From: a virus
Lineage: Duplodnaviria > Heunggongvirae > Uroviricota > Caudoviricetes
Direction: 5' to 3' (one strand)
Virus record (IMG/VR): IMGVR_UViG_2511231131_000009
Span: 1 to 48,521 of that record
DNA length: 48,521 nucleotides
Shown: positions 24,001-30,000 of the stretch, one piece after another
Numbering within the stretch: the first letter of the stretch is position 1
Layout: every line of letters begins with the position of its first letter
Made by a program: the position numbers

Positions 24001-27000
24001 AAATGGCAGCCATATTTATCTGCAGTATAAGCAATGGACAGGATAACCACACCAGAAACCGTCAGCATAAAATCCATTTGAACTTCCCCGGACAAAATCG
24101 ACTCATCTAAAGATTTACAGCTCTTTTTATTATCAATATGTTAAAAGTAAAATAAACAGATGTTCAATAACACGAATACAAAAACGTGCTGAAATTCAAT
24201 GAATCCATTTCTGTGTCATCAATTAATAGTGATAAACATCCGGCTTCTTCCACCATCGCACCGGACAGGCGACTATGAGGGGACAACGCCGCGCTCCGTT
24301 AACGCGGTAAACCCCGGTGTGTATCGTTTTTGATTATCCCCGCACACTCGCGCAGAAGAGTCTCCCTGTCGGGCTGCGGTCTCTGTTAATGCAGGAATAC
24401 GGCGACAATACCGCGCATGGATAATAAGGTCGCTCAACACACTGGCTGTAATGCAGCGGATACCATGCGGCATTTAGCGGCATTTAGCGGCATTTAGCGG
24501 CATTCATCGTACACTCCACGGTTAGCTCTTCATTCGTGGCATTCACCTGAAAGGTCCGGGAGTGTAATTGCGTACATTTACCACTGAACGAACCTTCAAC
24601 AAGAACACGACCACGCTGCAAAATACGGAACGGAATTGTTCCCTGAAAAGGTTCTACGGTTACCCGTAATTTCTTCATGTATCCTCCGGATAATAAAAAG
24701 CCAGCTTAGTGCACTGAGTGCGGATATATTCCTGCGCCCCTTCCAGCTGCTTCTGCATTGTCATCAACCGTTCTCTGAGGATGAAATAATCCCGTTCAGC
24801 GGTGTCTGCCAGTCGGGGGCCGGTTGCATTATCCACGCTGGAGGTGCCGGTGGCTTCACGCACGGTACCGGGGCAGGTGGCGTTGACCCGCAGGCGCTTA
24901 CGACCAGCGGCAACATCAGCGCGCAGAGTTTCAATTTCAGCTCTCGCATCGGCTAATTCCTTCGTGTATCTGGCATCAAGCGCAGCGACATCTCGCTGGC
25001 GCTGCTGCATGTCAGTAATAGTGGCATTCGCCAGTTTCAGCTCACTGACTTTTTTATCGCGCTGCGCTTTGTAGGTGATGGCGTTATCGCGGTAATGATT
25101 CAGCCCCAGACTAAGCACACCACAGGCTACCAGCAGGACAATAATCACCACACACAGAACACGGTTCATATCACCACCAACGGATTGCCCAGACCAGAAC
25201 AGCAATGGCCACAATACGAATGGCAAATGCCATTGCCCGAATAAGTTCAGCACTCATCTTTTTAAAGTTCACGATTTCAGCGCAATGACCAGTTTTGCCA
25301 GCCCATACAGCATCGGAGACACAGCAATACCAACAGCCCCCCACTTAATAGCAAAAGCCAGCGCTCTGCTGATGTCATCAGTCACTGTCACCCCAGCAGC
25401 CCCGACGAAGACAACATCACCCAGGCGAGGGACAGAAAAAGAGCAACCAGCATTAGTGAAAATGAAATACCGACAATCACACACAGGACCTTTGCCGGCG
25501 TTATGAGTTTGTCTGACATAGCTACCCCTTAATTGCCACAATTAACTGGGATACTACCCATAAAAAAGGGATGCTCCAGACCAGCAAAAATTTCCAGTTT
25601 GGTAATTGACTAATCATGAGTCGCAACTCCCTAATCAGTTTGCTAAAATCAATCAAGGCAGCCTCCCATAGCTTACTGCCATAAAAACAAAACCCCGCTT
25701 GCTGCCAACAAACGGGGTTTTTACTTTTATTCACTTACGTTTCGCCAGTTCGCAGGATTTCATGTTATCCGCCCGCGTGGCCATGCCTTATTTTTCAGCA
25801 AAATATTCTGCTTATCTGTCGATACCCCAGCACGCCAGCGCGCTCTCCTGGTCACGACGGGATACCTGACCGTAGCAGTTGTTTGAACGAATACGGCAAT
25901 CTCTGCCACCGTCCTTAATCCACCAGCGAATCGCCTCACATGCTCCCCTGCGATCACCAGCATTAATTCGTCTGTAAAACGTCGACGGGAAACACTTACC
26001 GGGACCAATGTTGTACGGACAGAATGACGCGATCCCCGCTTTCTGGGGTTCGGTCAATGGCACTTTGATGTTTTTCTCCACCCATGCCAGCGCCTTATCA
26101 CGCTCAATGGCGTTAACCTGGTCGCATTTCTCCTTCGACAACTTCATGCCCGGGACGACAGGTTTACCATCCACCAGAATGGCACCGCGACAGATGGTCC
26201 AGATACCCGCGCCATCACGGTATGCCGTGGTGTGGTTACCTTCCTTTTCATCCAGAAACTGGTCGAGAATGTCAGGCGCAGGCGCACCAGCGGCAATCAG
26301 CGCCAGAACGGCAGCCGACAGGCCGTATTTGATTTTGGTGTTCATGGATATTTATCAGGATTTATCGGCAACAGATAACGAGCCAGCTTATATACGTCCT
26401 TTAAGATAAGTCAGTCCTGGATGAAACCAGTAAGCCGGCACTTTTTTAAAGGGCGGATTATCAAAATCACGAAGAAGAGCCTCCCGCACAACTGCATCCT
26501 TGTCCGCACCACTGGCCAGCGCTTCAATCTCAGCAGCTATCTGCAGATATCCCATGCAACGACCAATGCACTTCATCAGCCCCTGCTTTTTATTGTTCTT
26601 CAGGTAATCAATGGCAAATTCAATGAGCTCCTCACTATGCTGGTGCGATGGCGGTGTTACTTTTCCATTTTCTGAGATGGTTATTTTCCCAGCATCACCG
26701 GATACAACAAAGGATGGCCGGTTACACTCCCATTCCAGGTCACTGAAATTATCATTATGAATACTGAAACACTCTGCGAGATTTCTGCTCATCACTTTCC
26801 GGCAATAATCGTAAAACGCAGCAAACTGCTCATCGCGGCGTTTTTTTTCAGGCTGCTGAAGATGCTCTTTCAACCATGAAGCGCAGCTTAGATTCGCCGC
26901 GCGATCAGGAATAGCTTCTTTCATTTCGTCTGCTGCAAGCACCTCATTTTTTGTTGGGGTGCTTTTTTTCAATTCAGCGATATAGCACTCCAGTTTTTCA

Positions 27001-30000
27001 ATACGCGATTCAACATCATCTTTTTCTGACCGCAGTGTTGACGGCGGCATCTTCAGAGAACAAGTAATTCTTCCCGGTAGCTTTCCTTTGTAGGTTATCA
27101 ATACATCCTGCGCATCTAAAATTACGGGGCGCTTTTCCGGTGACGGTTCATCCCCTTCGCATAACCCGGCAACAATATCCATGAAAAACTGCTTCGCCTG
27201 TTTTTTCGCCTCAGCTTCGTAGAACTCCAGCGTGGCACCTTCAGTACGGTCAAGACTAATCGCCACATGTGGCAACAACAACGACGGATGCCCGCCAATT
27301 TCAAGTGCCACAGTAACAGCAATCTTATCCGGGTAATTATTTATCTCTTTAACAACCAGTTCGTATTTTTTCTTCATCGCTTTAGTCTCCCCGCGCCGTC
27401 TTACGGCGGTCCTCCCTGATTTTGAAATACAGGTTAGTCAGATACGTCAGCAGGCCAAACAGCAGACTCCCCAGTACACCTATTGCCACCCACTGGGACG
27501 GAGAGACTTTGTCCAGCAGCTGCAGTAACCAGTATCCCGTCCCCACCGCTGACGTGGTGTATGACACACCCGTTGTGATTTTTTCCATCTGATGTATGTC
27601 TCCGTCACCGCCGACAGAAAATGAAAGTAAAGGAAAACAAAAAGCCGCCAGTGTCACCCACTGACGGCCAACTCCGGGAGCCGTGATTATGGCATTCAGG
27701 CTCTGCTAAAAATGCCAGATAACATTCCGACCAACCCCTGATTCAGGTTATAAATGACACAATATCTTGACAACATCCGTCACTGTCTGTCAGAAAATGT
27801 ACTGCCAAATATAAGTATCATGTGAAGTACATCTACCCGTTTTAGCCAGCGTCCTTCAGAGTGGGCGCTGGCTTTTTTTATTATGCTGCCGGTGCATTTA
27901 TCTCCAGCATCAGACTTTCTATCTCAACGCCATACGCTGCATTTTTTGTAACATCCGTCAGCGTCAGCGCATTCAGTCCCAGTGTCAGACTGTCTTTTAT
28001 AACCTGGAATGCCGGGCCAGCCACTCCATTCAGTTTCGGAGTAACCGTGGCACTGCCGGCGGTGAACACCAGCTCCAGCGTCTGCCAGTCGTTACCGTAA
28101 TCGCCGAACTCCCCCAGCTTCGTGTTTCCGGCTTTCCTGTGATGCATCAGATTCACTCTGCCGTCAGTGGTCTGAGTGAAGTACGACATCAGGAACGGAT
28201 TACCGGTACCCGTCATCGCCACACCATCAGGAACGGGAGCATCCGTATACAGATAAATCCCCAGCCCGAACTGATTGTTGGTCAGTGCGCCTGACAGGCG
28301 GAACTTACAGGTCAGTCTGCCGCCCTGTGTCAGCAGGGTAATTGCGTCATCCACCGGATGCGTCAGGGACCAGGTTTTATTGCTCTGCTTGGTGATCTTA
28401 AATACACCATCTGACAACTGAATTCCGCCATCCTTAATGCTCCAGCCCTGCGCAGCAGCCTCTCCGGCTGCCGGCAGCAGGGAGATTGTGCGAACGGACG
28501 TATCTGCAGACGGACCCGATGGCGTGTTGCCGCCGGGCGAGGGTTTAATTTCCGGTGCCTTACCACTGATGAAGGCTGAGGTGCGCCCGGCTGCGTTCAG
28601 AATAGCGGTTGCCAGACGATCCGGAATAATGCTCCTGCGCGCCCATGAACTGAAATGTGTCGGGCGGTTTGATGATACCTGGTTTCCATTCGTTCTCGAT
28701 GCCGCACCGTAATATCCTGATGCCGGAATATCCGGATCTTCTGCCGGCGCGTTAGTGGCGGTATTGACGCCGTTACCGTCTGTCATGAAGGGCACAAAAT
28801 AAACGCCCTCACTCTCCCTGTTTTTATACCCGCCGTACACGGTGTCGTACTGGGTAGCGTATGTATTTTTCCAGTAATACGTCGTGTCACCACAAATCCA
28901 CGGCACATCTGCAGCACTGCCACCATGGCACTGCGCGTTAAACACGGAGAGGTCAGCACGAAACTGTGTCAGCATGGCTGTAAACAGCGCAGGTTGCTGT
29001 GCGTGGGTGGCGGCGCTCATGTCAAACTCTCCCTGCATCCAGCACACCGCCAGCAACACATTTTTCGGGTTCTTCTGTAATGCAGCTTTAGTGCGCGCAA
29101 TCAGGTCCTGATATAACGGTTTACCCACACCCCAGCGTGCCGAATCCTGGCTGGCCCCCGTGTCCGCACTGAATGTCCCCTCAGCGCCCTGGGTGAATGC
29201 AGAACCACCACGACAGCATGGTACCAGCAGGATCCCCGCGTTATTCGGGATATACGGAAGCAGTTTTTTGGCAATATGTAAGCCCTGGCCGACACAGCCG
29301 TACTGCCCTTTGCTCAGGTCTGCCTTCGGATGATTCAGCGTACTCATATCCTGCACATCATGCAGGCAGTGGTCAGCCGGGATGATGTCGTTATACGTAC
29401 AACTCTCTCCACCCGGAGTTACCGTGCTGCGGCGCGCCAGCTGTTTAATGCGCGGATCCGGAGCATCGTAAGAATCCGGTAACGGAAGCCCTTCACCGTA
29501 GGCCATGCCGTTGGACTGTCCGGCAAGCACAACCACGTAGAACCAGTCCGGCTCAGATGAAGGGCCGTCCTGTGGATCTCCTTCAATAGCCACCGCCTGC
29601 ATCAGTGTGTACGGCGTAATGGCAACCGGTCCGCCGTATGGCTGCCAGCCCTCTTTCAGTTTGTGTGTCAGCTTTTCCGCAAGGTCTGACGGCGACGCCG
29701 CCCTGACAACATCATAGTGTTTAAATGCCATGAATCCTCCCGGCCGGGATAATATTGTGAGTAAAATGAGGAGCGGGCTGAAGTCCGGAAGTTACAGGAC
29801 AATGGCAGAAGAGAGACAACAGCCCGCAATACGAAAAAGGCCGCGCTATTGCGCAGAGTGATTACTGTCGGATATTATTCGCCAGCTGAAATATTACTTC
29901 ACGTTTTGTTGTTTATTCCTTGCCGCCCGCGTCTCCCTGCGCGGGCTTTTTTTGTCCATAAGAAAGCCCCTCCGGAGAGGGGCTGGAGAGTGGCGCTATG

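Follow-up and report, generated by a model that had tools for sequence, protein, structure and literature searches.

A full-length YdfR-family gene in the variable holin-lysozyme slot of an Escherichia coli lambdoid lysis cassette

The 329-amino-acid gene that separates holin from lysozyme in the lysis cassette of IMG/VR virus record IMGVR_UViG_2511231131_000009 is, we are confident, an accessory gene of that cassette that encodes a full-length member of the YdfR (DUF1327) family with two domains. The record belongs to a tailed phage (Caudoviricetes); by 'the window' we mean the whole stretch of 48,521 nucleotides (positions 1 to 48,521 of the record) that was analysed, in which the gene occupies 26388..27377 on the minus strand. 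A first-pass annotation, made from the sequence alone, had placed it in no recognisable family. This was wrong, as it matches Pfam DUF1327/YdfR (PF07041) and PHROG 1085, and the identical protein is named 'YdfR family protein' at NCBI. As to what the gene does, the overall explanation that we favour, that of a two-domain YdfR accessory late gene acting as an RNase E/RNA adaptor, is plausible but tentative.

A two-domain member of the YdfR family

The open reading frame (ORF) begins with ATG and runs for 990 nucleotides (329 codons plus stop) with zero internal stops in the ORF list. It is preceded by a Shine-Dalgarno sequence, GGGGAG (27387..27392, minus strand; read directly), placed 9 nucleotides from the ATG within the 3' end of the holin gene. 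The first-pass annotation had the coordinates and the length right, and also the neighbours and their spacing. Residues 1–100 match PF07041 with 132.1 bits against a cut-off of 25 (E 8.5e-39), and the match to PHROG 1085 runs end to end, with residues 1–329 on profile positions 1–296 (E 2.5e-180). Besides its NCBI name, the exact protein, which is recorded on at least 999 contigs, goes by 'Phage protein' and, in O55:H7 CB9615, by 'hypothetical protein G2583_2458'; window positions 18398–35377 are 99.64% identical to the CB9615 prophage. At least part of the ORF is matched in 2388 of 5426 complete E. coli genomes, and at least 80% of it in 490 of the 5426, many at 100%. The family and its slot are catalogued already, as is the identical protein. 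Literature on DUF1327/PF07041, on the CB9615 locus tag and on defence genes or hotspots within the lysis cassettes of lambdoid phages gave no account of the long form, and we found the conserved C-terminal domain, the fixed-border module mosaic and the convergent companion gene reported below described nowhere in the literature.

On the CB9615 prophage, the RefSeq annotation (Prokaryotic Genome Annotation Pipeline, PGAP) covers only the first 336 nucleotides (L001 8001–8336) of the intact 990-nucleotide ORF, and labels this copy a 'YdfR family protein' pseudogene 'missing C-terminus' despite the intact frame. This label is an artefact of annotation, caused by a family model that was built from short members.

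The N-terminal domain (residues 1–75; 27153..27377, minus strand, as are all modules) comprises the DUF1327 core, with a predicted strand-strand-strand-helix order. It is followed by a linker module (residues 76–122; 27012..27152), which has low model confidence and the highest ratio of non-synonymous to synonymous substitution (dN/dS) of all modules, by central helical, coiled-coil-like modules (residues 123–215; 26733..27011) that are variable or deleted in variants of 296, 287 and 268 amino acids, and by a conserved C-terminal domain (residues 216–329; 26391..26732) of three short strands and four helices, in which the motifs GR..LQ.AAE and DNPPFK...W..PG..YL are invariant. AlphaFold, supplied with 62 homologues, gave a confident N-terminal domain at residues 1–70 and a confident C-terminal domain at about 220–290, the two being bridged by about 150 low-confidence helix/coil residues. 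A second model, of residues 176–329 and based on an alignment enriched with Salmonella relatives, reached a mean predicted local distance difference test score (pLDDT) of 74.9, with a core above 80. The arrangement suggests a two-headed, adaptor-like design.

A homology and structure search, the check proposed in the first-pass annotation, found a family for the N-terminal domain and neither a family nor a fold match for the C-terminal domain. No Pfam family covers the latter; a weak Pfam scan of its relatives gave only sub-threshold DUF6200, and a sequence profile search of the PDB only coiled-coil noise. For the protein as a whole, an NCBIfam scan produced nothing relevant, PADLOC-DB 2.0 yielded 0 defence families at E up to 1, and the Pfam, NCBIfam and PDB sequence searches together revealed nothing beyond DUF1327 and no homology to known RNase E modulators of phages, such as T4 Srd. 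With the low-confidence full-length model as query, Foldseek aligned the N domain to the ADAR1 dsRBD3 and to a DCL4-RNA complex over 39–77 columns (E 0.36–0.43). An internal duplication relating the N and C domains was ruled out (hhalign probability 0.4%).

The protein is soluble (isoelectric point 6.1), contains no transmembrane or signal-arrest-release (SAR) segment (top 19-residue Kyte-Doolittle mean 1.09) and is probably located in the cytoplasm. A membrane regulator of the holin/antiholin kind, of the S21-71, T4 RI or Mu releasin type, was rejected for lack of any such segment.

Against four homologous loci, dN/dS of the gene is 0.27–0.34 overall, with 0.16–0.21 in the N domain, 0.14–0.24 in the C domain and 0.39–0.61 in the linker. 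Both globular domains are thus under purifying selection, at about 0.2. Synonymous divergence spreads up to eight-fold among the modules of one sequence pair, which points to module exchange through recombination. Given the overall dN/dS, the number of contigs that carry it and the retention of both domains in relatives at 38–47% identity, the ORF is a real gene rather than a reading frame open by chance.

In the Qin prophage of E. coli K-12, essQ (holin) is followed after a 4-nucleotide gap by ydfR (103 amino acids), then by rrrQ (lysozyme) and rzpQ/rzoQ. K-12 YdfR (P76160, b1555) therefore sits in the same slot, between the class II holin essQ and the lysozyme rrrQ, with the same 4-nucleotide gap as in the window. 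The window N domain is homologous to its RNase E-binding part (PF07041; 41% identity over 74 amino acids) and conserves its DR.EGA.LEFYEA patch. However, the K-12 protein is a 103-residue, single-domain protein rather than one of 329 residues, and is without the linker, the helical modules and the conserved 114-residue C-terminal domain. The full-length architecture, again in the same slot, is shared by the PHROG 1085 members of Stx2 phages Stx2_95 (BCI50300.1) and phage 86 (orf5); the Stx2_95 gene is likewise a 990-nucleotide ORF, whose DNA is 94% identical to the window gene.

The slot between S and R

The TAA stop of the 68-residue, P21-type class II holin S (27382..27588, minus strand; PF04971 'Bacteriophage P21 holin S', E 1.6e-32) precedes the ATG of the 329-codon ORF by 4 nucleotides, and 42 nucleotides separate the ORF from the gene for the 177-residue lysozyme R (25812..26345, minus strand; PF00959, E 1.4e-24; E-x8-D-x5-T motif). 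The Gly/Ala-rich N-terminus of R is SAR-like, and as far as its sequence goes R is consistent with a SAR endolysin. The same strand and tight spacing bear out the earlier description of an accessory gene inserted between holin and endolysin. The gene's GC content, 45%, is lower than the roughly 54% of S and R on either side. On the coding strand there is no sigma-70-like promoter match between S and R, so that R could apparently be transcribed only through the 329-codon ORF, inside which we saw a single weak hairpin; the gene is almost certainly co-transcribed with S and R, in agreement with the co-expression predicted before.

To place this arrangement in context, we fetched 80 IMG/VR loci with holins 91–100% identical, 73 of which also had a lysozyme. 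This sample was ranked by holin identity and is redundant, and the fractions that follow are indicative only. S and R were adjacent or overlapping in 26 of the 73 cassettes, while 19 contained an insert of about 400 nucleotides encoding a short YdfR, and five (one of them frameshifted) contained the full five-module insert of the 329-residue form. Other mosaic combinations filled the slot in the remaining 23, and a convergent 104-amino-acid gene stood there alone in 7 of the 73. The slot was thus occupied in about two thirds of the cassettes sampled. The 26 cassettes without an insert rule out a core lysis component: the gene is optional for lysis and, as the first-pass annotation had supposed, no universal part of the cassette. 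That annotation had also thought the arrangement unusual, which the K-12 Qin order, the matches in 2388 E. coli genomes and the occupancy of the slot all contradict.

The borders of the variable region were the same in every pairwise comparison, namely the holin stop on one side and, on the other, a conserved stretch of about 23 nucleotides directly 5' of R (26346..26368, minus strand) that forms the fixed right edge of the slot. The YdfR-family gene started 3–4 nucleotides past the holin stop in every E. coli locus inspected, and holins 100% identical were paired with the short form and with the long form alike. The short form parts from the long form after codon 112, and the short variant ends at residue 112. 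The homologues make up a mosaic series with lengths of 103, 183, 211, 268, 287, 296, 305, 329 and 333 amino acids; forms of 185 and 213 amino acids have no DUF1327 and keep the C-terminal half, and there are many truncated, frameshifted and module-deleted versions. The S-R slot is, then, a common, sharply bordered, recombining hotspot of the lysis cassette.

The 305-residue variant P0042 (L100/L101 2501–3418), a common one found on 275 contigs, follows the window gene colinearly as far as about residue 208. Beyond this point an unrelated tail of about 97 residues replaces the C-terminal domain, and about 510 nucleotides without annotation follow before R.

Distribution, Salmonella relatives and neighbouring genes

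Of 50,697 phage records, 100 have the N domain, and these are without exception lambdoid or Stx phages of E. coli; only five have the C domain, namely Stx2_95, phage 86 (two records) and two Stx2_12E129 phages. Functional Stx2 phages carry the long form. A full HMMER scan of residues 121–329 against 1.84 billion representatives returned 28 matches only, so there are no distant relatives to lend a function. All named matches of the profile search were from Escherichia, Shigella or Salmonella, and a scan of GTDB genome contigs added only three further Escherichia/Shigella loci.

In the divergent relatives, the named ones of which are all from Salmonella enterica, the C domain is 38–47% identical to that of the window protein and hhalign shows the N-terminal domain to be homologous to DUF1327 (E 7e-6, probability 84%; one relative has a Pfam E of 0.004). 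Since both domains are kept in these relatives, the two-domain architecture is old, and the short K-12 YdfR looks, from such sequence comparisons, like a reduced derivative of an older two-domain form. The Salmonella relatives sit upstream of the holin. In one locus the relative is flanked by an ADP-ribosyltransferase-like cargo gene and a P21-type holin; in the other it adjoins an HP1-type holin (PF16080), a different holin class. A convergent gene of 105 amino acids then follows the relative in both Salmonella loci. This companion (PHROG 1853, 104–105 amino acids) lies convergently behind many of the E. coli and Salmonella YdfR-family variants, as at L004 4652–4966, L097 1146–1460, L013 4099–4416 and L015 4021–4338 (minus strand), with 46% identity between the E. 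coli and Salmonella proteins. We searched the window for it and found it absent.

More generally, the region around the lysis cassette is a zone of cargo genes. In a related locus, a Tad2-like gene (PF11195) lies directly after Rz (L099 5092–5613), and in Salmonella, toxin-like genes with faint Pertussis_S1/Scabin-like similarity (L013 1657–2969) lie just upstream of the YdfR-family relative. In the window itself, the cassette is preceded by a late-region cargo gene for a NanS-p-like sialate O-acetylesterase (27881..29731, minus strand; DUF1737, SASA and DUF6645). A strong terminator-like hairpin, with an 11-bp stem and a T-run (27643–27669, minus strand), lies between this gene and S, about 55 nucleotides before the holin start, and late transcripts would have to be antiterminated by Q to read through it. 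Downstream, the Rz i-spanin gene (PF03245; 24675..25169, minus strand) has an embedded Rz1-like lipoprotein ORF at 24764–24949. The R-Rz junction (25171–25734, minus strand) is also interrupted, by several small ORFs, some with hydrophobic segments, that correspond to PHROGs 6632, 4906 and 3246/4493. Upstream of the esterase gene lies a trio of tRNA genes, Arg-tct, Arg-tcg and Met/Ile-cat (30221–30470, minus strand), as in Stx-type phages, and a tRNA-Ser (cga) near the prophage end (47541–47630, minus strand) may mark the integration site.

Possible roles of the long form

The only experimental lead to function comes from the short K-12 protein. A two-hybrid screen recovered residues 1–72 of K-12 YdfR three times, bacterial two-hybrid assays showed binding of Rne 1–597 by this segment and by the full-length protein, and Strep-YdfR brought down Rne 1–598 together with DNase-resistant nucleic acid (Gopel et al., RNA Biol 2026; PMC13232886). 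By analogy with this homologue, it is possible, though on the unlikely side, that the long form is a late-expressed accessory RNase E/RNA adaptor and not a core lysis protein. The gene itself is a moron-like accessory late gene in the hypervariable S-R slot of the P21-type cassettes of E. coli lambdoid prophages, almost certainly driven together with S and R by the Q-dependent late promoter. Translation, probably just after that of S, presumably yields a soluble cytoplasmic protein. In the adaptor explanation, its N-terminal DUF1327 domain would dock on host RNase E, at the N-terminal half with the catalytic activity, on RNA, or on both, in the manner of K-12 YdfR 1–72. The long flexible helical linker would carry the conserved C-terminal domain, which would engage another partner, and the protein would, as an adaptor, adjust RNA decay late in infection. 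A truly bivalent adaptor, with the DUF1327 domain on the RNase E catalytic half and the C-terminal domain recruiting a second partner (candidates being specific RNAs, a lysis protein or the convergent PHROG 1853 product), is a more specific proposal that we regard as doubtful.

Several observations weigh against an RNase E adaptor. The mechanism derives from one study of a short homologue, and the binding data concern a 103-residue protein 41% identical to ours. Overproduction of K-12 YdfR altered few transcripts and did not slow growth (PMC13232886). Variants without the N domain (185 and 213 amino acids) or without the C domain (the short forms) fill the same slot, which means that the two domains need not act together. 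Finally, the YdfR family always adjoins lysis genes, an association equally compatible with a lysis role.

Known systems offer partial parallels. T4, the phage of Srd, is virulent, whereas the window gene belongs to the late genes of a temperate phage, and no sequence relationship between Srd and the window protein was detected. A functional analogy is nonetheless possible, in that Srd is a phage-encoded protein known to bind the catalytic N-terminal half of RNase E (PMC13232886), and stimulates host mRNA decay. The window gene also resembles the lambdoid morons and late cargo (stx, nanS-p, bor) as a low-GC, optional late-operon gene of variable presence with fixed insertion borders, but it lies inside the lysis cassette rather than before or after it, and a sigma-70-like promoter of its own was not detected. 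Among the functions suggested by the first-pass annotation, that of an accessory gene fits best.

The position of the gene invites a different reading, in which the protein is a cytoplasmic regulator of lysis timing that delays or sharpens triggering by binding either the pinholin, at its cytoplasmic tail, or the SAR endolysin before its release. The logic is analogous to that of T4 RIII, a cytoplasmic antiholin. Like RIII, the window product is soluble and cytoplasmic and might in principle act on a holin, but the two are not homologous and the window gene is not universal among cassettes with the same holin. The constant 3–4-nucleotide distance from S in E. coli and the position of the Salmonella relatives beside the lysis cassette favour such a regulator, as does a K-12 ydfR deletion scored leaky in an envelope-integrity screen (supplement of PMC3879167). 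This phenotype could, however, be a polar effect on the downstream rrrQ. It is one of two weak genetic hints for the short K-12 gene, the other being a three-fold higher streptomycin minimal inhibitory concentration on overexpression of ydfR (PMC12924614). Such a regulator is harder to reconcile with the 26 cassettes that have nearly identical holins and no insert, with identical holins accompanying both the short and the long form, with the PF16080 holin beside one Salmonella relative, and with a protein devoid of membrane segments. We consider this role unlikely.

Also improbable, in our judgement, is that the gene is defence, counter-defence or superinfection-exclusion cargo, paired in many relatives with the convergent PHROG 1853 gene, which the window would have lost. 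The hypervariable, mosaic, low-GC slot with its fixed borders is reminiscent of known accessory hotspots, the companion follows many variants and is conserved at 46% identity from E. coli to Salmonella, one variant exchanges its C-terminal domain for an unrelated tail, and a Tad2-like gene follows Rz in a related locus. On the other side stand the lack of any PADLOC match or recognisable enzymatic or sensor domain, the missing companion in the window, and the lack of a detected sigma-70-like promoter of the gene's own, which makes expression in the lysogen doubtful. Least of all do we expect a functionless or selfish passenger, whether a mosaic remnant that persists only because it is linked to essential lysis genes or a protein of the cytoplasm that lysis simply sets free: the many degraded versions and the dispensability of the gene in a third of cassettes would suit it, but purifying selection acts on both domains, the architecture is kept even in the divergent Salmonella relatives, the protein is intact on at least 999 contigs, and with neither a signal peptide for secretion nor an effector-like domain the 'cargo released on lysis' of the first-pass annotation is without support and was rejected.

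For the present, the value of these results is mostly one of clean-up: the gene has a family, its slot is a common module-shuffling hotspot, and the intact ORF is misannotated in at least one RefSeq genome. Should the long form share the RNase E link, numerous lambdoid prophages of E. coli, including Shiga-toxin phages, would encode a late modulator of host RNA decay beside their lysis genes, which could affect burst timing and the levels of late transcripts, among them toxin and lysis mRNAs. Were the adaptor bivalent, temperate lambdoid and Stx phages would be able to control RNA decay at a late stage, and the interchangeable modules of the slot would represent alternative specificities.

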